A stretch of DNA of 64,000 nt from an uncultured Clostridium sp. (GCA_947064765.1 CAMSWH010000001.1:73-64072); one strand, 5' to 3'. Shown: positions 2,648 to 40,652, counted from the first letter of the stretch. Notes: generated by a model from the letters alone, not told the origin. Numbers and translations: made by a program.

Positions 2648-3145
2648 ATGAAAACAAATTTTTTTGCATTACTTTTAACTCTAGTTATGTGTATGACTTT
2701 TTCAACTACTACCTTTGCAGAAGAATCTGCAGCACCTGACATCAGCGATCCTACGGCAGAAGTTGAGAAACATACCATCGAGGTCAAAGTGCAACCCGGC
2801 GAGGAGATCACAGAAGATGACATCATGCCGCTCTTGTGGGATGAGGAAAATATCTCTTTGATGAACGGCGGTACATATGATACTATAAGGTTCTATGTTT
2901 CCGACCGGTACCTTGCATATGAAACTACTGTTACAGGACCACACGGCGAAGTAATTACAAGCGGAAAATTTGCCGTTGCACTTATGCATAATGGCGGAAT
3001 AAAGGCTTCCATGTCAGGGGATCCTGATGGCTCTACTTATAAGCAGGATTGGATTGCAATGAATCCGGCAACATATTATTTCAGAGCTTATAATAAAACT
3101 CCCGCTATTTTAAATTTCAAAATTACATATTACACTTGGAATTAA
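2648..3145 (+). CDS. Secreted hypothetical protein with a signal peptide, encoded in a GC-elevated patch
   Basis: AGGAGG lies 7 nt before the ATG. MKTNFFALLLTLVMCMTFSTTTFAEE is a Sec signal peptide with an AXA cleavage site. The coding GC is visibly higher than the flanks. Confidence 0.6.
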   Translation: MKTNFFALLLTLVMCMTFSTTTFAEESAAPDISDPTAEVEKHTIEVKVQPGEEITEDDIMPLLWDEENISLMNGGTYDTIRFYVSDRYLAYETTVTGPHGEVITSGKFAVALMHNGGIKASMSGDPDGSTYKQDWIAMNPATYYFRAYNKTPAILNFKITYYTWN

Positions 3146-21007: not shown

Positions 21008-22759
21008 TTATTCTAAAATTGCTTTTATTCTTCTTACTCCTGATGAAGAAGCTTCTTCTTTTTTTATTTTAAAATGTCCCAAAGTACCTGTTCTCTCAAC
21101 ATGAGGACCACCACAAAGTTCTATAGATACCTCTCCAATTTTATATACAGTTACTATATCACCATATTTATCTAAAAACATTGCTTCAGCTCCCATACTG
21201 ATTGCTTCTTCTTTTTTCATTTCTAATTTTTCAACAAGAATATCTTGTTTTATATATTCATTGACTAAATCTTCAACTTTTTGTTTTTCTTCATCTGTCA
21301 TTTTAGCACTATGTGAAAAGTCAAATCTCATTCTCTCTGATGTTATATTACTTCCTTTTTGATGTACATGATCTCCTAAAACTACTTTTAATGCTGCATT
21401 TAAAAGATGTGTCGCTGTATGATATTTAGTTTCAATTTCACCTGTTGATGCTAGTCCACCTTTAAATTTTTGCTCACTTCCAAGTCTTGATTTTTCTTGG
21501 TGCTCTTCAAATAATTTTTGATAATCAGACATATCAACTTCTAGTCCTTCTTCTTTTGCTAGTTCTTCTGTCATTTCTGGTGGAAATCCATAAGTTTCAT
21601 AAAGATTAAATACAGCTTCTGTATCTAAAACTTTCTTTCCAGCATTTCTTGTTTTATTTGCAACTTTTTCAAATTCTCTTTCTCCATTTTGAAGTGTTTT
21701 TACAAATTTATCTTTTTCTTCTATAATAACATTTTTTATTGTTTCTTTATTGGCTTCTAATTCTGGATATAATTCTTTTAAGCTTTCAATTGATGTATCA
21801 ATGATTTCTGGTAATTTATTTAAATCGATTTCTAATTTATTTAAATGTCTTGTCATTCTACGTAGTAATCTTCTTAAAATATATCCTCTATCTACATTAC
21901 TTGGTCTACCACCATCATTTATTATCATCATACTAGAACGTAAATGTTCTGCTACAATTCTTCTACTTTGGATATTATCTACTTTTTGTAATTCTACTAA
22001 TTTTTCCATTACAGGTGCAAATAGTTCTATTTCAAAAGGTGTTTCTTTTCCTTGTAATAACATTGTCATTCTTTCTAGTCCTAAACCTGTATCAACATTT
22101 TGTTGTTTTAGTTTTGAATATCCATTTTTATCTTTATAAAATTCCATGAAAACATTGTTCCAAATTTCTACATATTTTCCGCAACCACAAGATGGATTAC
22201 ATTCATCAGAACATTTTGGTTTTCCTGTATCATAAAACATTTCTGTATCTGGTCCGCAAGGTCCTTCTTCTCCTGCTATCCACCAGTTATCATCTTTTCC
22301 AAAGAAATATATTCTTTCGTCAGGTATTCCTGCTTTTTTCCATGCTTCATATGCTACTTCATCTTTTCCACAGTCTTCATCTCCTGCAAAACATGTAACA
22401 GATAATTTTTCTGCTGGAATTTCTAATTCTTTAGTTAAAAATTCATAACTCATTGCTATTGATTCTTCTTTAAAATAATCTCCTAAAGACCAGTTACCAA
22501 GCATTTCAAAATATGTTAAGTGACGATTGTCTCCAACTTCATCAATATCGTTTGTTCTAACACATTTTTGAAAATCTGTTAATCTTGTTCCTGATGGATG
22601 TTTTTGTCCTAAAAGATATGGTACTAATGGTTGCATTCCAGCTGTTGTAAATAAAACAGATGGATCGTTTTCTGGAATTACTGGTGCTGATGGAATTACA
22701 CTATGACCATGATTTTTAAAAAAATTTAAGTATTTATTTCTTATTTCAATTGCTTTCAT
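21008..22759 (-). CDS. alaS: Alanine--tRNA ligase, unusually short form (583 aa) with catalytic and editing domains but no C-Ala domain
   Basis: FEMLGNWSLGDYFK (motif 2 region) and DTGLGLERM (motif 3); editing-domain zinc motifs HTATHLL and CGGPHV. The ORF stops about 30 residues after CGGPH, and only 124 nt remain before the next gene. Confidence 0.8.
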   Translation of the reverse strand: MKAIEIRNKYLNFFKNHGHSVIPSAPVIPENDPSVLFTTAGMQPLVPYLLGQKHPSGTRLTDFQKCVRTNDIDEVGDNRHLTYFEMLGNWSLGDYFKEESIAMSYEFLTKELEIPAEKLSVTCFAGDEDCGKDEVAYEAWKKAGIPDERIYFFGKDDNWWIAGEEGPCGPDTEMFYDTGKPKCSDECNPSCGCGKYVEIWNNVFMEFYKDKNGYSKLKQQNVDTGLGLERMTMLLQGKETPFEIELFAPVMEKLVELQKVDNIQSRRIVAEHLRSSMMIINDGGRPSNVDRGYILRRLLRRMTRHLNKLEIDLNKLPEIIDTSIESLKELYPELEANKETIKNVIIEEKDKFVKTLQNGEREFEKVANKTRNAGKKVLDTEAVFNLYETYGFPPEMTEELAKEEGLEVDMSDYQKLFEEHQEKSRLGSEQKFKGGLASTGEIETKYHTATHLLNAALKVVLGDHVHQKGSNITSERMRFDFSHSAKMTDEEKQKVEDLVNEYIKQDILVEKLEMKKEEAISMGAEAMFLDKYGDIVTVYKIGEVSIELCGGPHVERTGTLGHFKIKKEEASSSGVRRIKAILE

Positions 22760-23094
22760 TTTTTATTGTCCTTATCTATTATATTTAGGTTTTTAGTTAT
22801 CATAGGTTTTACCTATAAACCTTTTTTATAAAAATAATATTAATTACATTTTAATGTTTGTAATTATATTATAAAATCGTATATTTTTCAAGTCTTTATG
22901 TTAATAATGTATCTATTTTTTACTTCATTTTCCTACTTGAAAATTATTAATAAATTTTATAATTAGCAGCAAGTTTTATTAAATTGACAAGGCCACCACA
23001 TAGAAATATCTACGTGGTGGCCAAAAGTAGCTTATCCTTTCAAAAAAAACTAATTAACCAAAGCTCTCAGATTTGACGGTTTCAGGCTCTTATT

Positions 23095-24792
23095 TCACTT
23101 CGGCACGTTATTTTTCGGTCCGCAAGGAATCTGTCCTTCAACAATATAGCAATAAAGGTTTATCAGAAGAGACATTTTCCTCATTTCGCCTTTCTTAGCC
23201 ATTCCGCGCTTAAGACTAAGAAGTTTATTCTCAATGATCGGCATATCTACTTTTTCCAAATCAAAATACATTTCAACATACTCCAGATCAAATCCAATTA
23301 ACGACTTCAGTTTTTCCTCATCAATCTCTCCTGTCGCAAACTTTGCGAATGCACTTTCGTTTGCTGGAATAAGGAATTCATTTACAAGTTCCCTTAGCTT
23401 GTCTCCATCTGTTGCACCATTCTGCACAGCAAATCTGATAGCCGCTTCTTCGGTTGTTTCCGGCTTGATAAACTGTAAAACTTCTTCTTCATATTCCTTA
23501 TCTATTGCAAGTTCTGTTTTCAGCTCTTCTCCCGAAATTTCTCCCTTCAGATATAGCATCAACACCTTTCCACTATCCTTTTTTATTAAAAGATCCGCAA
23601 TTTCAAATTCGCGCGTTATATCAGTTGACGCTGTTATATATCCCATTTCATTTGAAAATTTGATTGCGGAAAAGAACCTCCCAACTTCCATTTTTCTTGT
23701 CTTAGGAAGCTCATCATCTCCAATATACTTTACATTAAAAATAAAGTTTTCTTTTGCAAGATACTCAAAGAAATATATAAATCTTTCTTTTTCAATCTCG
23801 CCGGAAATGTCCAAATCCTCTACAACATAATAATATGGAAAGTTTTTCATAACAATTCTTGAGCCCTCAAAAACTTTCAGCATCCGTTCCATCTGCTGGC
23901 AAAACTTTATATCTGTGTTCTTTAATGTCTGATACACATAATAAAGCATTCCTAAATCCCAATCAGCAAATATCTGCTTGCAAGAAAACAGCTCGACCGG
24001 ATACACTCCTGGCTCTGTGTGAATCTTCATTTTTAACTTCCTTACACTGGAAAAGCTTTGGTTCAATGATGCCTTGTTCTCAGAAACAAACCGATCTTTA
24101 TCCAACTTAAGCTCGGCAAACTCTAATAGTTCTTTTCTGAGCTTCTTATCTACCTTACGAATCTCATTTGCCACAGCATCATAAAGAATTCCATCTTCAT
24201 TGTATGGACTTATCTTATACTCATACAAGAAGAACATTTCCTCTGGATAGAAGCTCTTTCTGCTATTGTTTTCTAAAGCAAGAGAGTCCTTCACTATTCG
24301 TACTGGTTCATGTCCTTCATAAGTAATCACGCTGTAGTCCTCGGCAAAAAAATGATAATCGCTAAAAATAATCATATAAGCTCTCAATAATTTTGCCTTT
24401 TCCAGTTCCGTCATTTCTTCGGGCGCTCCCCAAAGTCTCTTCGCAGTATTTTTCATCAATTCCTTATAGCCTACAAGATAATACAGTGCATTTTCAATTG
24501 TACGAAGTTTTGAAACCAATGCCATAATATCCGCTGGTTTCGCCGTTGATTTTCCTGTAGCACCAATACCAAAATATTTCTTTACTTTGCTAAAGTCAGC
24601 TTTTCCTAAAGTATCCTCAAAAACAGGAAAAGCCTCTTCAACAATCATCTTAATATCAATTTTATTTTGCCCCCCTTCTGGAACAAGCGCCTCATAGAAT
24701 TTCACAATTGCTTTTTCATCACTTTGTGAAACCTTTTCATAAGACACTACCTTCCGTGCCTGAAGCGGTGCTTTGGGTAAGAAATTCTTCAT
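23095..24792 (-). CDS. Hypothetical protein (565 aa) encoded in a GC-elevated island
   Basis: The start was set at MKNFLP because AAGGAGGG lies 7 nt upstream; the longer ORF to 24912 has no RBS. There is a possible Walker-A-like GIGATGKST and otherwise no recognisable domains. A GC-rich hairpin GGCCACCAC...GTGGTGGCC lies downstream (about 22992-23023). Confidence 0.5.
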   Translation of the reverse strand: MKNFLPKAPLQARKVVSYEKVSQSDEKAIVKFYEALVPEGGQNKIDIKMIVEEAFPVFEDTLGKADFSKVKKYFGIGATGKSTAKPADIMALVSKLRTIENALYYLVGYKELMKNTAKRLWGAPEEMTELEKAKLLRAYMIIFSDYHFFAEDYSVITYEGHEPVRIVKDSLALENNSRKSFYPEEMFFLYEYKISPYNEDGILYDAVANEIRKVDKKLRKELLEFAELKLDKDRFVSENKASLNQSFSSVRKLKMKIHTEPGVYPVELFSCKQIFADWDLGMLYYVYQTLKNTDIKFCQQMERMLKVFEGSRIVMKNFPYYYVVEDLDISGEIEKERFIYFFEYLAKENFIFNVKYIGDDELPKTRKMEVGRFFSAIKFSNEMGYITASTDITREFEIADLLIKKDSGKVLMLYLKGEISGEELKTELAIDKEYEEEVLQFIKPETTEEAAIRFAVQNGATDGDKLRELVNEFLIPANESAFAKFATGEIDEEKLKSLIGFDLEYVEMYFDLEKVDMPIIENKLLSLKRGMAKKGEMRKMSLLINLYCYIVEGQIPCGPKNNVPK

Positions 24793-25122
24793 AGGCATCC
24801 CTCCTTGAGTTTTTTGTTTTCTGCTACTTGTTGCCATGTCTCTTTCTTTCCTTTCTACTATTTTGTTTTCAATGTTCATGAACACATTACTACTTTTTTT
24901 GTAACTAGTCATACATTTTTATTTTTTCATGTTATGTTAACTTTTGCAATATAAAAATTTAAAAAGTACAGAACGCAAATTATTACGCATTCTGTACTCT
25001 TTTTCTTTCACAATAAAATCTTGTGTGTCTCGGTTTACATTACTTTCGAATTATTCCTCGCTGGCTTCTGCTTTTTTAGATAGTCCATTCTCATTTCAAG
25101 AATCATTTTCAGATATGTTTTA

Positions 25123-25689
25123 CTATTCTTCAGATTCGTCAGAGGAAAAAGCCGTAAAGGGAATCATTGCCTCAACTCCACACAGCATCTGAATAAAAGC
25201 TGCAACTGATTCAGGCATTCCTTCAGGAACAAAATTTCTGTATATTTGCATCATAAACTTATGGCTATTTCTTTCTACCATAGCACTGCAAATATCATTG
25301 ATATCTTCTATTCCTTTTACCTGAATAGATTCTTTGACCATTTTAATAATCAGTGCCTGTGCTTTCACATCATCAGTAAGGTGAAGAACCATCTCGATAG
25401 AATCTGCAAAATTCACCTTGAATGATGCTATAACATCTTCTGCTATGCATTCTTTATTCTGTTCAAATTCATTTCTTAATGTGTTAGCTGCAAGTTTTAC
25501 ATTAGAATCAGGTGCACTTTTCTCCATTTTTTTCATCTGAACAATCAGATCCTCTGTTGCCAGATTGATTCTGTCCTTTACTTGTTCGGATTCCAGAAAA
25601 GCATTTACTTCTTCATACAGCCCTTTCTGCCGGAAAAATTTATCTTTTTCTTCCAACAATTTTTGTAGTTCCTTTTGTTCTTCGTTCAT
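25123..25689 (-). CDS. Hypothetical protein (188 aa), partner of the 565-aa gene in the GC-elevated island
   Basis: An AAGAGAGG RBS lies 7 nt before the ATG. It is acidic and helical, and a hairpin with flanking A/T tracts follows it (about 24961-24998). Confidence 0.5.
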   Translation of the reverse strand: MNEEQKELQKLLEEKDKFFRQKGLYEEVNAFLESEQVKDRINLATEDLIVQMKKMEKSAPDSNVKLAANTLRNEFEQNKECIAEDVIASFKVNFADSIEMVLHLTDDVKAQALIIKMVKESIQVKGIEDINDICSAMVERNSHKFMMQIYRNFVPEGMPESVAAFIQMLCGVEAMIPFTAFSSDESEE

Positions 25690-25982
25690 AATGATACCTC
25701 TCTTTTCATCTATATTGTAAGCTCATGCATACATTTTTATTATAACACCAACTCAAAACTTATGTCAACCGCATTATTTTATCTATTTTCTATTATATAA
25801 ATTAGTAAAATTTTTCTATTATACGAATATTATATAAATTTCATATAATAGAAAAAAAGTGGATAATATTTAATAGAAAATCTGAAGAACTTTTCTACTA
25901 AATAAAAAAGATTAAAATTGCTAACATATTTCATAACAATTTTAATCTTCTCTATTTTACTTTTTTATAATTTCTATTTTTA

Positions 25983-26492
25983 TTAATATTCTTTTCCAAA
26001 TAAATTTTTATATTCTAATAAAACTTTATTTTGTAATTCTCCTACATAGTCTTTAGTTTTTCCTTCAAAATCCGTAATACTATAAAATTCTTCTAATCCA
26101 GCATCTTGATTTGAATATAATGGTTGTTTTAAAACAGAACATTTATATTCCTCTGCTTTTCCATCATTTTTTTCAACTCCATCTCCCCAATAATATAGTT
26201 TTCCTAAATAATATTTAGAGAAAACATTATCTGCTTTAGCTGATTTTTCAAAATATTCTTTTGCTTTTAAGTGATTAGTTTCTACTCCATTACCATTATA
26301 ATAGATTTTTCCTAAAAAATAATTTGAACCTTCTGATCCTCTTTCTGCTGCAACTTCAAAATATCCTCTTGCTTTTTCAAAGTCAACTCCTACTCCAGTT
26401 CCATTATAATAGATTTTCCCTAACTCATAAATCGCACCAACATCTCCATTTTTTGCTAATCCTTCAAGTTCCTTGATATCTTTAGTACTCAT
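25983..26492 (-). CDS. Sel1-like / TPR repeat protein
   Basis: Repeated GKIYYNGxGVxxxxxKAxEYFEKxA units. Confidence 0.65.
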   Translation of the reverse strand: MSTKDIKELEGLAKNGDVGAIYELGKIYYNGTGVGVDFEKARGYFEVAAERGSEGSNYFLGKIYYNGNGVETNHLKAKEYFEKSAKADNVFSKYYLGKLYYWGDGVEKNDGKAEEYKCSVLKQPLYSNQDAGLEEFYSITDFEGKTKDYVGELQNKVLLEYKNLFGKEY

Positions 26493-30429: not shown

Positions 30430-32424
30430 TTATATGCTATCAATATCTATTGCTTTTTTTCTTGTATATATACGTCTTCTTGGTAAATCTTTATATAAGT
30501 TTAATATATTTTCCAAGTCGTTTGCAAATTCTCTTAAAGTAACTGTTTTTATATTAACTTCTTTTCCAGCACAATATTCATCAAGAGTTGATTTTAATTC
30601 AGTTATAAAAGGAATTTCAGCTTCAATCTCTCTTCTATATTTTTTAGCTCTTATTAATAACATTTCTTTTATTTTCATTATATCTTCATTACTTGCACAT
30701 GTAATTCTTTGCATCATTTTATTAACATCATAGTAATTTAATATTGGAGTTTTTGAACATTCTGTGGTAAATTTGTCATAAAACACTTCCATTTTCATTG
30801 GTATACACTTGAATATTTCTTCTGCCTTTTCTTTATACATCTTAATTTTTAATTTTCTATTCAATTCATGGAAATGTTGTAATACATCATTCATATCTTC
30901 TCCAACATCAATTCCAATTCTTGAAAGTTCTTCTTCAATATTATCACAATATTCAGATGTTTCAGCAGCTAAATCCATACCCTCTAAGAATATTTCTTTA
31001 ACTTCTTGCATTTCATAAGGTATTAATTTTCTTCTTGAAAAATAACTAAAATATGCAAACAATTTTACAAGCTCAATTAATTTCAAATCTCCATTTTTTA
31101 CATTTGAAATTACTTCTTCTATAACATATGGGAATTGATCATCTGATATTTTCCAATATTCTTCTGTAAGTAATCTTTTATATCCAGGTAATTTTTCAGT
31201 ATCTATTGTTTGAATAATCATTTCCATATCATTTTTAAAAATTTTCATATCAAAAATTCTTGTTCTTACATATACTTCTATAAATTTAAAGAATCTATAT
31301 TCTGATTTAAAATTAAAATAATAATTATTATCAAATTCTTTTATATAGAATTGTCTATTATCCATTAAAACCCTTGAAGAAACTAAAATTGATTTATATT
31401 CTTCATTACTACTAATATTTACAAATTTATCTTTTGTTATTTTTCCTGCTTTTATTTCGAATGATACAGCTATTGTAAATATTAACATAGTTTGTAATAC
31501 TCTTAAATTAGTATTTGGATAAAATTTATTTACTGTTTCAAAAATCTTTTTAAAATCATTTAATGCATGTTTTAAAATTCTAAGGTTTCTAGTTCCTGAT
31601 TTTATAAATGTATTTGTTATTAAATCTGTATGTTCTCTTAAAAATCTAATTAAATCTTCATTTGTCTCATATCTCATTAAAAGTCCATTTATTATATAAT
31701 TAAATTTAGGTGCATATTCAAAAGTTTCACCAATTAATTTTTCTTTTATTCTTTCATAATCATTTGCTTTATCAAATACATATTCTATTTTTTCGCCAAT
31801 TTTTTCAACCATTGGTTTATCAGCTGTAAGCAATGTTCCTTCTTTATCTAAAAGATATGTTGCAATAAACGTTTTCATTTCCAAGTTTGAACTTTTTAAT
31901 TTTGTTGATAATTCTTTTTCATTACAAATTATAATTGTTTTTATATGGTCATGTTCAACAAAGTTATTAATATATCCTAATATATCTATAACATCAACAT
32001 TAGCTCTCTCTAAGTCGTCAAAACATAATACTTTGTCATCTGTTGAGAAAAATTGTGCATAATCCATTTTGTCCCCATTTTGTGTTACGCCAAAAAGATG
32101 TGCCATATCTAATCCTGTTTTTGCATATTCAGGTATAGATGTTTTATCATGAGTAGTCATATATTTTCTCATGTTTTTATCCATAAGCTGTGTTGTTTCT
32201 ATAAATATTTTTTTACTTATATCTTCTAAGTTTGATATCCCATATAATGACATATATATTGTTGTATATTTTTTTCCATTAAATGAAAGTGAATCTATTT
32301 TATTTCTAATTTTGTTATTCCAAAAATAAGTTTTTCCACTTCCCCATTCACCATTTATCATTATTGCATAATCAGTGTAATCAGCTCTTACATAATCTAA
32401 AATACTTTCTACTAAATCTTCCAT
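30430..32424 (-). CDS. KAP-family P-loop NTPase (664 aa)
   Basis: Walker A GEWGSGKTYF is the KAP-specific GxWGxGKT variant. It has a Walker-B-like hhhhDDLE and a long helical C-terminal region. Confidence 0.65.
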   Translation of the reverse strand: MEDLVESILDYVRADYTDYAIMINGEWGSGKTYFWNNKIRNKIDSLSFNGKKYTTIYMSLYGISNLEDISKKIFIETTQLMDKNMRKYMTTHDKTSIPEYAKTGLDMAHLFGVTQNGDKMDYAQFFSTDDKVLCFDDLERANVDVIDILGYINNFVEHDHIKTIIICNEKELSTKLKSSNLEMKTFIATYLLDKEGTLLTADKPMVEKIGEKIEYVFDKANDYERIKEKLIGETFEYAPKFNYIINGLLMRYETNEDLIRFLREHTDLITNTFIKSGTRNLRILKHALNDFKKIFETVNKFYPNTNLRVLQTMLIFTIAVSFEIKAGKITKDKFVNISSNEEYKSILVSSRVLMDNRQFYIKEFDNNYYFNFKSEYRFFKFIEVYVRTRIFDMKIFKNDMEMIIQTIDTEKLPGYKRLLTEEYWKISDDQFPYVIEEVISNVKNGDLKLIELVKLFAYFSYFSRRKLIPYEMQEVKEIFLEGMDLAAETSEYCDNIEEELSRIGIDVGEDMNDVLQHFHELNRKLKIKMYKEKAEEIFKCIPMKMEVFYDKFTTECSKTPILNYYDVNKMMQRITCASNEDIMKIKEMLLIRAKKYRREIEAEIPFITELKSTLDEYCAGKEVNIKTVTLREFANDLENILNLYKDLPRRRIYTRKKAIDIDSI

Positions 32425-36074: not shown

Positions 36075-36320
36075 AAAAAAGCCCTTATACTTACGTATAA
36101 GGGCGAATATTTACCACGGTACCACCTTATTTATCTATTTTAATTAATTAAAATAAACATCTCTTAGATTTTAACGTATCTTACACGAATATACTTAAAG
36201 TTAATTTCAGTATATCAACTCCAAAGCTACCTTCAAACAAACCTTACTATTTAAGAAGCTCTCAGCCTATGACTTCTTTTCTCTTTATAGAGCTTTTGTT
36301 TTACTCCTCTTTTTCATAGT
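36075..36320 (-). promoter_or_regulatory. T-box riboswitch leader of valS (approximate bounds)
   Basis: On the minus strand AAGGTGGTACCGTGG (T-box) is followed by the terminator GCCCTTATACGTAAGTATAAGGGC plus TTTTTT; an AGAGA-containing stem I lies upstream. Confidence 0.8.
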
Positions 36321-36538
36321 TTTTAAATTATATTTAATATATTAACATAATTTTCTAAGTAAATCAAGAGTTATTTTATAATATTTTAACCTCTTTTTGA
36401 TACTAAAAAAAATTATTAGTACCATCAAAACTTTTATTTAATAGAAAATATGTAATATTTCAATTAAATAAGAAAAGAGTGCCAGATAATTCTGACACTC
36501 TCTTCTTATTTTCTCATAAAATTCTTTATCAATATTAT

Positions 36539-37906
36539 TTATTCATCTAATAGTACTTTTTTTAATCTTGCTTTCAACATATTTTTTGTTTCAAAGTACT
36601 CAGCAAAAACATTATATGCAAATTCCAAAAATTCTTTTGTATAAATGCTATTCATTTTCACTTTTATCTTTTCGATCAAAAAATTGTCTCGTGCTTGAAC
36701 AATTTCTTCAAGCATTTCTTCTAGCAAATCTGTAAAATTCATCTTTAAGTCAGTATCAACTCCCGCAATATATTCATATTTTCTCCTTGCTTCAGGAAGC
36801 AAAAAGATATACGGTAGCTTTTCTAAGCAAGACATTGCTTCTATATAACTTTTCAAAATTGGCTTGAAATCCTCTGTTGGAGCATTATAAGTAGTGCAGA
36901 AATTATATCTTTTCTTGATATACTCCAACCTAGATTTTCTTACCTCTTGAGAAGGAAGATTTGGAAGCAAAGCAGCCTTTGTGTTAATAACTGGTTCGTA
37001 ACTTGCAACACCAATATCTGCAAACATACCTGAATCCAAAAAATCAACTAATTCTTTAAATTCTTTCTCTGTCTCCCCTGGAAAACCAACAATGACTTCT
37101 GTCGATAATATCAAATCTGATCTTTTTTCAAGCAGTTTAGATACTCTCTCTTTTACAAACTCAAAAGTAGGTCTATTCATACTTTTCAAAATATCATTAT
37201 TGGTATGCTGGATATGTAACATGATTTCTACAACATTTTTGCATCTTGTAATCGTATTTATGAAATCATCTGTTAATCCAGCTGGATGAAACCATCCTAT
37301 CACGTATTTAGAATTAGGATATTGAGTGCTAATATTTTCAATCAACTCTGAAATCTTGTAAGTACCATATAAATCAGTTCCATAGTCGGAGGTTTCCAAT
37401 GCTCCTGTAATATAAATAACAGTTTCATTTTCATAAATCTCCTCAACTTCTCTTAATACTTCTTCCATCGGTTTACTTCTATAATTTGCATCTATCAATG
37501 GATATACGCAATATGAACACTTTTTTCGGCATCCTGTACTAATAATTATCTGGTTTTGTGGTATAAACTTTTTTGTAACTTTTGGCTTTCCAATCATTAG
37601 CTGTAATTCCTCAAAAGTTTTAACACATATTCTTGGAATAGCCTTAAGTTCTTGAGCATTAGTTTTTACAAGACAACCACTAACAATTACCTTGCTATCT
37701 GGCTTAGAGTTTCTAACTACATCAGCAATAACTCTCATGCTATACTCTCTTTTATTTCCGAAAGCACATGTCATTATAATAGTAACATCAGCCTTTGTAT
37801 AATCAGAAACTATCTCATAACCATTTTGAACCATTCCAGAAATTAAACTGTTTGCCTTATCTAGATCCATATGCATTTCACTACACAAAACAATGGCAAC
37901 TTTCAT
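36539..37906 (-). CDS. Radical-SAM methylthiotransferase (MiaB/RimO MTTase family)-like enzyme lacking a TRAM domain
   Basis: The N-terminal MTTase domain has three spaced Cys residues (about positions 8, 46 and 77). The radical-SAM CxxxCxxC motif is GCRKKCSYCVYP. The roughly 120-aa C-terminus is helical with no TRAM. The gene lies 12 nt downstream of the preceding gene. Confidence 0.65.
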   Translation of the reverse strand: MKVAIVLCSEMHMDLDKANSLISGMVQNGYEIVSDYTKADVTIIMTCAFGNKREYSMRVIADVVRNSKPDSKVIVSGCLVKTNAQELKAIPRICVKTFEELQLMIGKPKVTKKFIPQNQIIISTGCRKKCSYCVYPLIDANYRSKPMEEVLREVEEIYENETVIYITGALETSDYGTDLYGTYKISELIENISTQYPNSKYVIGWFHPAGLTDDFINTITRCKNVVEIMLHIQHTNNDILKSMNRPTFEFVKERVSKLLEKRSDLILSTEVIVGFPGETEKEFKELVDFLDSGMFADIGVASYEPVINTKAALLPNLPSQEVRKSRLEYIKKRYNFCTTYNAPTEDFKPILKSYIEAMSCLEKLPYIFLLPEARRKYEYIAGVDTDLKMNFTDLLEEMLEEIVQARDNFLIEKIKVKMNSIYTKEFLEFAYNVFAEYFETKNMLKARLKKVLLDE

Positions 37907-37918
37907 ATGAACTCTCCT

Positions 37919-38491
37919 TTAGACAGGCATAGTTATTTTTATATAATAATTATAATTCTCATCATTGGATGCTTCATACGTTCCTCCATGTTCTAATACC
38001 CATCCTCTTGCATCTATGACTTTATTACCCTCTTTATAAGCATAAAAAGCAAATGGATTCTTTAAAAAGCACAATATTGCTCTAAAATCATCAAAATACA
38101 TAATTGAACGGACTCCATTCAAACTATATACCTTATTGGTAGCAACATGGACTGAATTGACATAAATTTTATATTCATATCCATCACTTCCTTTATTTAT
38201 TAGAAATCTCTCAAATTGTTCTTCAGCAAGTTTAACTTTCAAGGGCTTTAATATATTCTGATATTCTAAATATGCCTGGATTTTTTCAGCAATGCTATCA
38301 TTAACAACTAAATCATTTTTTCCTGTGGCATCCCATTCATAAAATATCTGCTCTAATTCTGCTGAAGTAATCACAACTTCGCCACCTGCAGTATTTATAA
38401 TTTTGCTCACAGATTGAGTCACCAAATTCTGCTGTACTTCCTGCTGGACATCAGCTTTTGGCTGTTCTTCTGGTATAATTTTTCTTGACAT
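37919..38491 (-). CDS. Hypothetical soluble protein (190 aa), third gene of the AAA+ operon
   Basis: Its start overlaps the stop of the upstream gene (translational coupling). It shares the operon's elevated GC. Confidence 0.5.
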   Translation of the reverse strand: MSRKIIPEEQPKADVQQEVQQNLVTQSVSKIINTAGGEVVITSAELEQIFYEWDATGKNDLVVNDSIAEKIQAYLEYQNILKPLKVKLAEEQFERFLINKGSDGYEYKIYVNSVHVATNKVYSLNGVRSIMYFDDFRAILCFLKNPFAFYAYKEGNKVIDARGWVLEHGGTYEASNDENYNYYIKITMPV

Positions 38492-38492
38492 A

Positions 38493-39071
38493 TTACTCCT
38501 CCTCTACATAGTAGTTATTTACATACTCGTAGCCTTCATTTCTTTCAGGTAAATACATCTCCATTGTTTCTTTAAAGCTTTCTGTGCTTCCCAGAGCCTC
38601 CTCAAGATCTCTAAATTTCATGCATCCCTGTCCCGGAAATCCTGACGTTTTTATTTCAGTTTTTCCTCCTGAATAACATACAACAGAAATCTGCCCACCA
38701 GATTCCTCATCAGTTAATGTAAGCGTTATCATACCTTTTTCTTCATTTTCTGTAACAGAAAGACCTCTTTGAAAGGCCTCAATTTTTACCTTTTCAGCAG
38801 AATACTGCTGAAGCAAAATTCCAGCATTTTTGCCTACATATCTTGAAACTTCACCGTCATACATGTCCGCTTTTACTTCATATTCCTCATTCTTCAGGTT
38901 AAGAGCAATATCATACTTTCCCGGAAGCTTAACTACCAAATCCGCCATTTCAGCACCATAATAATAACGTGCCTTAGAATGTTCATTAAGTAAAAATCCC
39001 ATTTTGGAAACGGCTGCCTGAAGGGCTTCTCTGTCCTTTATTTGTGTTGCAATTCTTGTAAAATGACTCAT
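38493..39071 (-). CDS. Hypothetical soluble protein (192 aa), second gene of the AAA+ operon; possibly Ycf35/DUF1257-like
   Basis: The N-terminus MSHFTRIATQIKDREALQAAVSKMGF recalls cyanobacterial Ycf35-type proteins, but this rests on memory only. It overlaps the AAA+ gene stop by 4 nt. Confidence 0.45.
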   Translation of the reverse strand: MSHFTRIATQIKDREALQAAVSKMGFLLNEHSKARYYYGAEMADLVVKLPGKYDIALNLKNEEYEVKADMYDGEVSRYVGKNAGILLQQYSAEKVKIEAFQRGLSVTENEEKGMITLTLTDEESGGQISVVCYSGGKTEIKTSGFPGQGCMKFRDLEEALGSTESFKETMEMYLPERNEGYEYVNNYYVEEE

Positions 39072-39074
39072 CTT

Positions 39075-40652
39075 TTATTCCTCCTTACTGGTGTCTTTAT
39101 CCTGCTGAATAAATCTCTGTCTTGTAACAATCTCCTCATCAACCTGCTGAGCAGTATTAGCCTTACTGATTCCCACTACATTACTCCACTTTCTAAGAGA
39201 CTCAATTTGTTCCTTCATCATGCCCTTTGCCATAGGATTAATCATTTTGATTGCTTCAATAATACATTCTGTTGTGAGTTTTTTATTCTCACTATTCCAG
39301 CTATTATAGAGTGCATCTACAATTCCCTGCTCAATTTCAGCACCTGTGTAATCTTCAGACTCATTAACTAACATATCCAAATCAAAATCTGCTGAATCTC
39401 TCTTATATTTTTTGAGCTGGATAGAAAATATCTCTTTTCTTTCCTCTTTTGACGGCAAATCAACAAAAAAGATCTCATCAAATCTGCCCTTTCTCAAAAA
39501 CTCTGGTGGAAGTTCAGATATGCTATTAGCCGTGGCAATTACAAATACCGGCGCCTTCTTCTCCTGCATCCATGTAAGGATAGTTCCAAACATACGAGAT
39601 GTTACTCCTGAGTCTGTTTTTCCGCTTGATTGAATTCCTGACAATCCTTTCTCTATTTCATCAATCCACAGGATTGCCGGTGACATAGCTTCTGCAGTTT
39701 GCAAAGCACGCCGTGTATTAGACTCTGTATCACCTACAAGAGATCCAAACAGTTTTCCAATATCAAGCTTCAGCAACGGTTTCTGCCATAAATTAGCAAG
39801 AGCCTTAGCACTCAAACTTTTACCACATCCTGGAATACCTATGAGCAAAGTGCCCTTTGGATATGGAATACCGTATTCCTGTGCTTCATGAGAATATGCC
39901 GACAGTCTCTTAGTTGCCCAAGAAGTAAAATTCTTCATACCGCCAACACTCTCCAGAGTCTCTTCAGAAGACAAATACTCAAGTAAACCACCACTACAAA
40001 TCGTTTGTTCTTTAACATGGTTGATCAGCTTAACATCAAATCTGCCATACTTAGCAATTGATGTAGCATACGCGTTCTCTGCCTCATTAATAGTAAGTCC
40101 TAACGCTGCTTCTACAAGATCCGCTGTATTATTCGGGAGTGCAACTTTAAAATTTGTTGACATTTCTGTTAACTTGTTACCTAATTCCTCCCGTGTTGGT
40201 AATGGAAGTGTTGTTACAATAACTTCCCTCTTAAGTTCTGGAGGAATGTTAAACTCTATACTGGCAAATACATAAGTCACACCAATCGCCTTGGCAATTT
40301 TAAATACATCTTTTGCCCGCCTCCAAACATTTGATGTCTTAACAAATGAATGAAAATCCAGCATAAGAAAAATCTTTCCATTGATTCCCATGTCTTTGAG
40401 TCCTGCTTCAAGCGCCTTTACCGGATCTGTTACTACCTGCTGTTTGTTGGTAATCTCATTCTCAACATCTCTATTTGTCATCTTGGAATAATCTTTAACC
40501 TGCTTCTGAACACCTCCAGTTAAAGTCCAATATTCAAAACTCTTGTTGAGTTTTTTGGCCAAATTGCTGCACTCAAACAGTGCTCTTTCTTCCTCAGCCG
40601 TTGTAAGAATGATTGCCGGATATCCTGCTCTTACGAAGTTCTCCATTTCCAT
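39075..40652 (-). CDS. AAA+ ATPase with a large N-terminal domain (Ycf46-like architecture)
   Basis: Walker A GIPGCGKSLSAKALA, Walker B AILWIDEIEKG and a second region of homology with FLRKGRFDEIFFVDLP (classic AAA clade). 525 aa, with an AGAGGAAG RBS 7 nt before the ATG. Confidence 0.7.
   Translation of the reverse strand: MEMENFVRAGYPAIILTTAEEERALFECSNLAKKLNKSFEYWTLTGGVQKQVKDYSKMTNRDVENEITNKQQVVTDPVKALEAGLKDMGINGKIFLMLDFHSFVKTSNVWRRAKDVFKIAKAIGVTYVFASIEFNIPPELKREVIVTTLPLPTREELGNKLTEMSTNFKVALPNNTADLVEAALGLTINEAENAYATSIAKYGRFDVKLINHVKEQTICSGGLLEYLSSEETLESVGGMKNFTSWATKRLSAYSHEAQEYGIPYPKGTLLIGIPGCGKSLSAKALANLWQKPLLKLDIGKLFGSLVGDTESNTRRALQTAEAMSPAILWIDEIEKGLSGIQSSGKTDSGVTSRMFGTILTWMQEKKAPVFVIATANSISELPPEFLRKGRFDEIFFVDLPSKEERKEIFSIQLKKYKRDSADFDLDMLVNESEDYTGAEIEQGIVDALYNSWNSENKKLTTECIIEAIKMINPMAKGMMKEQIESLRKWSNVVGISKANTAQQVDEEIVTRQRFIQQDKDTSKEE

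Follow-up and report, generated by a model that had tools for sequence, protein, structure and literature searches.

This report concerns a GC-rich block in a 64,000-nucleotide (nt) stretch of DNA (hereafter, the window) from an uncultured Clostridium sp. (GCA_947064765.1, CAMSWH010000001.1:73-64072; one strand, 5' to 3', positions counted from its first letter). The block lies between alaS, which encodes alanyl-tRNA synthetase (AlaRS), and a Sel1-repeat gene, and holds two minus-strand genes, here called BIG and SMALL. The block is real, but the idea of a toxin or defence pair of recent import does not hold: BIG, which forms the core of the block, is a long-resident, dispensable, very fast-evolving orphan gene with a composition that ordinary horizontal transfer does not explain. 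Comparison loci carry L0xx labels, and protein database entries carry P0xxx labels. The features of the block, in the order in which the genes are read, are as follows.

25,739-25,768, minus strand: predicted SMALL promoter (TTGACA, 18 nt, TG, TATAAT; 12 of 12 matches).
25,123-25,689, minus strand: SMALL, 188 amino acids (aa), acidic, predicted all-helical, no family match.
24,961-25,002, minus strand: intrinsic-terminator-like hairpin (17 pairs, then a T-run) that would end the SMALL transcript and separates the two genes.
24,921-24,949, minus strand: predicted BIG promoter (-35 box TTGCAA, 17-nt spacer with the family-invariant TTAACATAA, TG, -10 box).
24,838-24,920, minus strand: predicted 5' leader of BIG, about 83 nt, with blocks conserved family-wide, followed by the Shine-Dalgarno (SD) sequence.
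23,095-24,837, minus strand: BIG coding sequence (580 aa with the ATG at 24,837 as start, 565 aa with that at 24,792).
About 24,680-24,757 (approximate), minus strand: hairpin within the BIG coding sequence, at about codons 12-38 of the 565-aa form.
23,050-23,094, minus strand: in-frame continuation past the BIG TGA, encoding the conserved tail NKSLKPSNLRALVN, then TAG.
22,991-23,022, minus strand: terminator-like hairpin of BIG, GC-rich, with a 4-nt loop.

GC content in 300-nt windows was 0.31-0.39 across about 22,950-25,800 and 0.17-0.30 on either side (mean over all 64,000 nt, 0.263), a sharp island that bears out the original prediction of a block richer in GC than its alaS and Sel1 flanks. 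Over 22,990-25,780, the values stood at 0.33-0.39 against about 0.25. GC skew of the window was strongly negative on the plus strand. Two minus-strand open reading frames (ORFs) occupy the block, at 23,095-24,912 (605 codons) and 25,123-25,689; each has the SD sequence described for it, and the hairpin that had been seen between them is present and terminator-like. The downstream hairpin is present as well, but 14-nt arms with one mismatch around the short loop fit it better than the perfect arms and 14-nt loop first proposed. The GC excess was confined to third codon positions, with host-like values at the first and second: GC at third positions (GC3) was 0.35 in BIG and 0.30 in SMALL, compared with 0.07-0.17 in the remaining window ORFs that reach 150 aa, apart from one doubtful ORF and those of a second island (36,539-40,652).

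The BIG frame remains open as far as 24,912 and ends at a TGA at 23,095-23,097. Comparison with 20 relatives placed the family-conserved start at the ATG at 24,837 (SD GAAAGGA), giving 580 aa, which is also the length of the database form (P0001). The strong SD AAGGAGGG and the ATG at 24,792, from which a 565-aa protein had been read, do exist, but are limited to the closest alleles and do not mark the start of the family. At the other end, the TGA stands in place of a conserved arginine codon (AGA or CGA in relatives), 15 codons ahead of the usual stop of the family, and could be either a recent nonsense truncation or a read-through site. The TGA-bearing allele P0001 occurs on six contigs from several samples. 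Codon reassignment was ruled out, as the invariant R251 is encoded by AGG and a TGA replaces an arginine codon in this allele only. The terminator hairpin was kept in five alleles, with base changes in both arms (alifold z, -6.8). At the hairpin inside the coding sequence, synonymous sites were nearly invariant among the five closest alleles (alifold z, -7.1), and single-sequence folds did not retain it in distant alleles.

The composition of BIG is a trait of its family. Of 19 loci, 16 had the gene at 8 to 16 GC points over its flanks and three at 2 to 4 points over them, and the rise was limited to the gene itself. Its GC3 was mostly 0.25-0.49 (0.18-0.49 overall) against about 0.1 in the host, a three- to fourfold difference across 21 loci, in 17 of which it was the highest among ORFs of at least 150 aa. 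The excess was also present in four other chromosomal contexts (L019, L020, L033, and L035), and members of a distant subfamily (L049-L052; 30-45% identity to the query) likewise formed single-gene GC3 islands (0.28-0.41 against 0.10-0.16). From host to BIG, A at third positions (A3) fell from 0.52 to 0.31, G3 rose from 0.07 to 0.26, and C3 rose from 0.03 to 0.10 (3.7- and 3.0-fold for G3 and C3; main direction, A to G and T to C); among codons, the share of AAG went from 9% to 54%, that of CAG from 4% to 73%, and that of CTG from 0% to 17%. Highly expressed host genes go the opposite way (rpsB, tsf, and pyk in L020; A3, 0.55-0.59; AAG, 0-8%), so BIG is enriched in rare codons rather than optimal ones, and translational optimisation was rejected as the cause. 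The tRNA genes in the window were tRNA-Leu(UAA), tRNA-His(GUG), and tRNA-Gln(UUG) only, with no dedicated tRNA identified among them. An overlapping or antisense gene behind the high GC3 was also rejected: antisense ORFs were fragmentary and differed among loci, and dual coding would lower the synonymous divergence rather than raise it.

Folding of the BIG message was compared with that of synonymous-codon shuffles, which keep both the protein and the codon usage. Four divergent BIG alleles folded 9-21% more stably than their shuffles (z, -3.4 to -7.0), and 14 host genes treated in the same way gave z values of +0.95 to -1.6. When the control was tightened to window-wise dinucleotide shuffles, which leave local composition intact, z was negative on the sense strand in all 20 BIG alleles (mean z, -1.16); the antisense strand gave a mean z of -0.60 and was weaker than the sense strand in 19 of the 20 (Wilcoxon P = 4e-6), and the alaS control gave a mean z of -0.48 (Mann-Whitney P = 6e-5). 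The asymmetry between sense and antisense points to RNA rather than DNA.

Upstream regions of the BIG family aligned over about 120 nt, including those from unrelated contexts and from members with 31-40% protein identity. The aligned promoter consensus was TTG-N5-(G/A)TT(A/T)ACATAA(T/C)N-TG-N-TATAAT, the core of which may also be written TTG-N5-RTTWACATAAYNTGNTATAAT, and 18 of 21 upstream regions scanned held a sigma-A-type promoter (TTGnnn-17-TAnnnT) with TG; the -10 box is AAAAAT in the window and TATAAT or TAAAAT in relatives. A 20-nt motif, TTWACATAANNTGNTANAMT, occurred exactly once in each of 34 BIG-carrying loci, always 5' of BIG on the coding strand and about 50-120 nt from the start codon; it was found nowhere else in those loci and nowhere in BIG-negative loci. 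The window copy has one mismatch. The leader that follows is about 70-95 nt long across the family and carries, ahead of the SD, three blocks that are conserved: (A/G)TGTATGAC, TGT(A/G)G, and (G)TACATTGAAA(A). The window leader has ATGTATGAC (24,908-24,916), GTAGTA, and GAACATTGAAAAC (24,865-24,877). Promoter and leader were nearly invariant among five alleles with coding sequences 74-92% identical. With its family promoter, leader, coding sequence, and hairpin terminator, BIG is by these predicted signals a self-contained expression unit.

Single-sequence folds put a hairpin at the 5' end of the leader, and RNAalifold on a MAFFT alignment of leaders found no consensus structure. A candidate helix (AAUGUA/UACAUU) was not supported by covariation: it paired in 69% of cells, and 428 of 500 shuffles scored at least as high. 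The leader matched no Rfam family (best hits, 11-21 bits; gathering scores, 50-71). In an Rfam scan of 20,000-42,000, the T-box leader 5' of valS alone reached its gathering score (104 bits; 36,096-36,326, minus strand). Conservation at the level of sequence, with the helix unsupported, suggests a site to which a protein binds, whether as an operator in the DNA or as a leader in the RNA.

SMALL had three close protein clusters and a 50-53% identical version in L023. It was confined to the closest lineages and was absent from L037 (a locus with 80%-identical BIG) and from more distant BIG loci; elsewhere, BIG stood alone or beside unrelated neighbours. A perfect 14-nt direct repeat, AATAAAAATGTATG, lies at 25,728-25,741 and at 24,910-24,923; the latter copy spans the BIG -10 box and the start of the leader, and the former overlaps the SMALL promoter at 25,739-25,741. 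The repeat suggests a copied promoter segment or shared control. SMALL is, on its predicted signals and distribution, a lineage-specific add-on with its own promoter and terminator, and the block is thereby resolved into two separate predicted transcription units. The AlphaFold2 (AF2) model of SMALL was poor (predicted local distance difference test [pLDDT] score, 56) and was not used.

BIG had 47 homologue clusters among 5.8 billion proteins, none with a Pfam domain or a name, all 568-625 aa long except one 476-aa fragment. An exhaustive profile search of 1.84 billion representatives found only 97, some of which make up a distant subfamily (about 480-560 aa) with the N-terminal 350 residues in common. 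Genomic copies were all in uncultured Clostridia metagenome-assembled genomes (MAGs; "Candidatus Scatovivens" and relatives) from sources including human and sheep gut. The host flanks examined were all 24-29% GC, with no GC-richer host found among them, and all hosts of BIG carry sporulation genes. As sampled, the family appears confined to very AT-rich (24-29% GC), spore-forming gut Clostridia.

Neither protein is recognisable, as first stated: BIG and SMALL had no usable match in Pfam, NCBIfam, PHROGs, or PADLOC (SMALL, one marginal SspE match in PADLOC; E value, 0.0011; 15 bits). For BIG, a sequence profile search of the PDB gave 0 matches, and Foldseek against the PDB and BFVD gave none with an E value below 0.1. 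Pfam searches with 45 members and distant relatives gave nothing usable, only noise such as VbhA (E value, 0.29); SHOCT (PF09851) was matched weakly by 4 of the 45 (best E value, 6.2e-5) and not by the window protein. Literature searches on the host genus and on the phenomenon found nothing relevant.

The AF2 model of BIG, built on a 45-sequence alignment, was confident (pLDDT, 89.5; predicted template modelling score, 0.77). In order, it shows a disordered basic N terminus; a helical domain (about 20-145) carrying FPxFExTIG..F.KVKKYFGIG and LRTIENAxYY; an alpha/beta region (about 150-390); a helical domain in the C-terminal half with two SHOCT-like GEIxxEE (GEIxxEExK-like) helices; and a conserved basic tail, LYCYxVEGQIPCGPKxxxPKRNKxLK. 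By inspection, there was no signal peptide and no membrane segment. The alignment had 28 invariant positions, mostly charged or aromatic, including the charged or polar E59, K69, R97, E100, N101, K134, R137, D152, E184, E227, R251, K254, and E334. The P-loop-like string GIGATGKST that had been pointed out is present in the window allele, but it is not a Walker A motif, because only FGIG is conserved in the family (F74, G75, and I76 are conserved; the ATGKST part varies, as in GIDSAGKSM, GIRCPVKAL, and GIGCKPNKKM); BIG had no P-loop match in Pfam. A levivirus-like RNA-dependent RNA polymerase, an idea taken from the string YIGDDE in a beta-hairpin, was rejected, as the GDD is not conserved. From its invariant charged residues and basic tails, BIG is plausibly an enzyme or a nucleic-acid-binding protein.

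The gene order SpoVT-Sel1-(SMALL)-BIG-AlaRS-sortase was shared by at least 14 species-level genomes, with slight variants in L029 and L031. Pairwise identity matrices of BIG and AlaRS gave the same four clusters (window, L022, L037, and L023; L032, L024, and, more tentatively, L026; L025 and L034; L027, L030, and, more tentatively, L036). Within the closest cluster, distances for the two disagreed: the window and L023 were 98% identical in AlaRS and 74% in BIG, and L022 and L037 were 95% and 84% identical, respectively. Presence and absence were assessed with AlaRS homologues sampled independently of BIG. The Sel1-alaS junction was empty in L041 and L042 (464 nt; GC content, 0.17; no remnant) and held an unrelated 138-aa ORF in L047 and L048, as suits the accessory block of the original prediction; L043-L046 had no BIG within 7 kb. 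These three BIG-negative lineages were nested among BIG-positive ones in the AlaRS tree (a single-gene, neighbour-joining tree), so the gene is dispensable, and ancestral presence with at least three losses would be the parsimonious history. Taken together, these comparisons indicate that BIG has been inherited vertically, although dispensable, and has stood beside spoVT, Sel1, and alaS since before the species diverged.

No BIG homologue was found in IMG/VR (2.9 million viral contigs), INPHARED (50,697 phage records), or PLSDB (72,556 plasmids). At the locus, no integrase or mobility gene, tRNA, terminal inverted repeats, or target-site duplications were found, the intergenic DNA being too diverged for a comparison of empty and filled sites for such duplications.

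Elsewhere, BIG is a singleton: after cotJABC (L020), after rlmN near ytxC and spoIIP (L019), and between murA/ftsQ and patatin/topoisomerase III (L033 and L035). In four of six distinct genomic contexts, a family member adjoins or lies within two genes of a sporulation gene (spoVT in the window and relatives, cotJABC in L020, spoIVA with gerA nearby in L049, and spo0A in L052), and in a fifth (L019), ytxC and spoIIP lie 2-8 kb downstream. BIG matched no known sporulation family, and its upstream promoters look sigma-A-like rather than of a sporulation-sigma type. A link between BIG and sporulation is, from this neighbourhood, a lead only.

Divergence rates were estimated by the NG86 method and changes were polarised by parsimony, both crude under such extreme composition. 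DNA identity of 94-98% dropped to 77-89% over BIG alone and recovered in alaS. Relative to the flanks, divergence in BIG was about 4-fold faster at synonymous positions and about 10-fold faster at non-synonymous ones, the ratio of non-synonymous to synonymous divergence (dN/dS) being 0.10-0.15. Between the window and L022, dS was 0.58 in BIG and 0.11-0.27 in the flanks, and dN was 0.090 in BIG (dN/dS, 0.15) and 0.000-0.014 in the flanks, except for ComF (0.074); between the window and L023, dS was 1.6 in BIG and 0.20-0.43 in the flanks. Beyond L023, synonymous sites of BIG were saturated (proportion of synonymous differences, 0.76-0.86; flank dS, 0.5-1.1), and GC3 stayed high. Judged from these alignments, BIG appears to diverge much faster than its surroundings while under purifying selection.

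Divergence was about uniform along BIG, with hints of mosaicism at the 5' end, where the first 30 codons of the window allele were nearer to L022 (96%) than to the overall nearest allele, L040 (90%). Some alleles recurred in identical form across samples (P0004, for one, on 88 contigs). When synonymous changes in BIG were polarised, the two directions balanced: four branches gave 54 weak-to-strong (A or T to G or C; W>S) and 62 strong-to-weak (S>W), and a second design gave 77 and 62; a decaying insert would be expected to give about 1:5, by our own estimate from a two-state model under host bias. Amelioration of an ancient transfer was rejected on this balance and on GC3 of 0.18-0.49 persisting in saturated lineages. 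Per site, rates in BIG exceeded those in the flanks 3.5-fold for W>S and 2.2-fold for S>W.

BIG was also considered, and rejected, as the target of a diversity-generating retroelement (DGR): no reverse transcriptase or Avd gene lay near it in any locus, there was no matching repeat in 22,700-26,100, its divergence was uniform, and its identical alleles recurred across samples. A DGR does occur in the BIG-negative loci L043 and L044 (10,088-13,869), with an RVT_1 reverse transcriptase and bAvd, 3' of the sortase gene. It adjoins a gene for a 609-aa prepilin-like protein that is unrelated to BIG and has a C terminus like a DGR variable region.

Several other features were noted in the window and related loci. 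The second GC3-rich island (36,539-40,652, minus strand) has four genes with GC3 of 0.23-0.33, encoding a 525-aa AAA ATPase (IetA-like in PADLOC; 8e-25), a 192-aa DUF1257+DUF2997 protein, a 190-aa protein without a family, and a 455-aa radical SAM/UPF0004 (MiaB-like) protein. The island is shifted at third positions much as BIG is (A3, 0.34; G3, 0.20), and two of its genes had excess mRNA folding (z, -3.0 and -2.2). A 165-aa ORF at 2,648-3,145 (plus strand; GC at first, second, and third positions, 0.43, 0.40, and 0.36; no Pfam match) sits in a 1.1-kb "intergenic" stretch (GC content, 0.29) and may be non-coding (e.g., an RNA gene) or another atypical gene. The AlaRS at 21,008-22,759 and in related loci is short (583 aa; catalytic domain and tRNA_SAD), as it is in more than 120 clusters at 89% identity or above (579-600 aa, nearly all exactly 583 aa); the usual bacterial AlaRS has about 870 aa, and judging by length, the short form would lack the C-terminal domain. 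A 664-aa KAP-family NTPase (30,430-32,424) matches the PADLOC candidate defence family PDC-S49 (2e-79); its composition is host-like, and it is 84-99% conserved in relatives.

Variation was also seen next to BIG in other loci. In L015-L018 (9,981-11,294), where BIG is 47% identical, the gene 3' of it encodes a 437-aa membrane protein (TPM/YgcG-like by eye, with a Gly-rich C terminus), intact in L017 and L018; in L015 and L016, the same gene is broken into two ORFs (142 aa and 210 aa), through either a strain-level frameshift or a difference in assembly. In L038 (7,907-8,869), one strain with the 80%-identical BIG allele, a Mob_Pre relaxase gene and an extracytoplasmic function sigma/anti-sigma pair lie from about 4.5 kb 3' of BIG, past the sortase gene; its sister strains have a Peptidase_S11 gene there. 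This variable region is close to the locus but distinct from it.

What was seen at BIG is more than any one known force can explain. The reading that we favour, to which we give somewhat less than an even chance, is a combination led by selection on the transcript. Selection would maintain the coding sequence near a compositional steady state of its own by favouring a message that is stably folded, slowly translated, and/or long-lived, with dedicated control through the conserved leader, and recent import from a GC-richer donor would not be the cause of the composition. Transcript-level selection accounts for the coding-sequence and transcript boundaries of the anomaly, the strand asymmetry of folding, the use of rare codons, and the presence of the anomaly throughout the family. 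Allele turnover by recombination between conserved flanks would add to the divergence and, possibly with GC-biased gene conversion (gBGC), accounts for the raised dS and dN and for the incongruence within the closest cluster. The product would be soluble and of alpha/beta type, its termini basic and disordered and its N-terminal two-thirds holding many invariant charged residues; SMALL would be a later, lineage-specific addition that borrowed 14 nt of the BIG promoter and leader start. Our guess is that BIG is linked to sporulation or dormancy, possibly acting on its own leader.

A number of observations count against this combined reading. Synonymous selection should lower dS, yet dS in BIG is raised 3- to 5-fold and exceeds the divergence of the surrounding DNA, so a second process is needed, either allele turnover or a higher mutation input. 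The S>W rate is also raised about 2.2-fold, so a GC-favouring force is by itself insufficient. In the AT-rich flanks, the control itself revealed a parsimony bias (W>S, 231; S>W, 47), and the case that BIG is not ameliorating is therefore carried mainly by its high GC3 despite saturated synonymous sites. The folding excess is modest (mean z, about -1), is weak in L019, and was absent from two of the three genes of the distant subfamily; within the coding sequence, the one hairpin of the closest alleles was the only conserved structure found, the structures of distant alleles being different. The alleles are related by descent and hence not independent, and all relatives are MAGs or metagenome contigs. 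The leader helix has no covariation support, and a sigma-A-like promoter with an extended -10 leaves the gene neighbourhood to carry the sporulation link.

The strongest competitor, clearly less probable but deserving serious attention, is a hypervariable locus in which divergent alleles are kept (e.g., by frequency-dependent selection) and swapped by recombination at the conserved promoter-leader and the terminator/alaS flank, so that gBGC raises GC3 and old alleles give high dS and dN. It would fit the drop in identity that coincides with BIG between near-identical flanks, the flank-like SMALL dS of 0.07 beside 0.58 in adjacent BIG (window against L022), the 53% identity of SMALL between the window and L023, the closest-cluster disagreement and 5' mosaic hint, and the rise of both per-site rates with W>S ahead. 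Higher GC3 reportedly tends to go with recombination in bacterial genes (a finding attributed to Lassalle et al., 2015). In Plasmodium, the var genes exceed their genome in GC content. Set against this, known bacterial gBGC effects amount to a few GC3 points, not 25; gBGC is strand-symmetric and hence does not predict more folding in sense than in antisense; GC3 excess in single-copy members elsewhere is left without an account (signs of allele exchange were neither sought nor seen there); and between clusters, BIG alleles follow the host tree. Hypermutation specific to the gene with an altered spectrum, by transcription-coupled adenine deamination or a retroelement-like RNA intermediate, is much less probable still. 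It would suit a dS above that of the surroundings, rates raised in both directions, a largest third-position change of A to G on the coding strand, and an anomaly limited to the transcription unit. Identical alleles on dozens of contigs from different samples make ongoing hypermutation unlikely, however; the locus has no reverse transcriptase or deaminase (the DGR of L043 is unrelated), the transcribed 5' leader is nearly invariant, and G3 and C3 rise alike.

The horizontal acquisition put forward in the original prediction, here as a recent or recurrent cassette from a GC-richer donor (about 36-45% GC, e.g., other gut Clostridia) at a Sel1-alaS hotspot, we consider improbable. The junction is polymorphic for presence and absence; the codon usage (CAG, AAG, CTG, GCG, and CCG) resembles that of moderate-GC Firmicutes; the varying accessory neighbours are somewhat GC-rich (SMALL and the TPM-like membrane protein of L015 and L017); the window has a second GC3-rich island; and the Ala/Gly/Pro-rich N terminus of a distant relative, P0111, suggests a GC-richer host. 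The same position is nonetheless occupied in at least 14 species, with trees that agree at cluster level; none of the viral, phage, and plasmid collections or mobility signatures searched gave a trace of it; all host flanks examined are AT-rich, as is the family promoter-leader that is kept with the gene in all contexts; and balanced W>S and S>W changes show no GC-to-AT decay. A toxin-antitoxin, immunity, or anti-phage pair with SMALL neutralising or partnering BIG, which had also been suggested, is very unlikely. Two adjacent unknown genes of the same strand and composition, fast-evolving and dispensable, one of them small, acidic, and helical, might be expected of such a pair, and the KAP NTPase (PDC-S49) lies 5 kb away; PADLOC, however, gave nothing for BIG and the marginal SspE match for SMALL, each gene has its own predicted promoter and a terminator lies between the two, their linkage is not conserved (SMALL is missing from most BIG loci, including L037), and BIG is a singleton among housekeeping genes in other clades. 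Our ranking is thus transcript selection first, recombination with gBGC second, recurrent transfer third, hypermutation fourth, and a toxin or defence pair last. Of the earlier reading as a whole, a distinct, accessory block of unmatched genes is supported; the horizontal origin, the two-gene module, and the P-loop are not.

Beyond the ranking, a bolder and rather doubtful proposal is that BIG is an undescribed type of bacterial gene unit: an orphan family passed on with a dedicated promoter-leader, in which selection on the message (its folding, stability, or slow decoding) has set a composition far from mutational equilibrium throughout the existence of the clade. The leader or mRNA of BIG may itself be what the protein acts on, in sporulation or dormancy. 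Were this so, some of the "foreign DNA" scored in AT-rich genomes would be resident genes under RNA-level selection. Atypical composition is the standard criterion for calling horizontal transfer, and BIG fails the other tests of recent transfer that were run (it is syntenic, follows the host tree at cluster level, has no sign of mobility or a donor, and is not decaying); absence from three nested lineages and incongruent distances among the closest alleles are the only two features that fit transfer. If transcript selection or strong local gBGC is the cause, the gene would be a clean natural system for the forces acting on synonymous sites in bacteria, and a caution for composition-based island detection in AT-rich genomes. 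From the same locus come a confidently modelled protein family of abundant uncultured gut Clostridia, uncharacterised and with no match in sequence or fold; a promoter-leader motif specific to that family, through which its regulator might be traced; and a possible new sporulation-associated factor.

Among known systems, horizontally acquired genomic islets recognised by atypical composition (an amelioration model is attributed to Lawrence and Ochman, 1997) share with BIG a sharp compositional break, atypical codons, presence and absence, and genes of unknown function. Unlike them, BIG holds a fixed position in at least 14 species, co-diverges with its hosts, has no mobility machinery or sign of a donor, shows a family-wide anomaly that is not decaying, and keeps a host-like AT-rich promoter-leader with the unit. 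Hypervariable allele cassettes under balancing selection (pherotype, capsule, and specificity loci) resemble it in conserved flanks, divergent alleles at a fixed locus, incongruence among close strains, and purifying selection, but the BIG protein is cytosolic, with no hypervariable segment and no co-varying partner, and the compositional anomaly is not theirs.

On the side of the transcript, genome-scale ordered RNA structure (GORS) marks the coding regions of RNA viruses that persist, and structured RNAs of high GC content stand out in AT-rich bacterial genomes. The folding excess of BIG is likewise spread along the coding sequence, sense-specific, mostly not conserved in position, and G/C-rich in an A/U background; unlike GORS, it belongs to a chromosomal bacterial mRNA, is moderate in effect, and is not seen in two of three distant relatives. 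Leader stabilisers and autoregulated leaders of Firmicutes (aprE, ermC, and ribosomal-protein leaders) differ in that the BIG leader has no Rfam match or covariation-supported common helix; they are similar in a leader of about 70-95 nt after a strong extended -10, a 5' hairpin in single-sequence folds, a strong SD, and deep conservation of blocks. In Streptomyces, bldA/TTA-dependent genes are gated by a rare codon. BIG has hundreds of shifted codons rather than one, but like those genes it uses codons that oppose the preference of its host, which could tie its expression to tRNA supply or slow translation.

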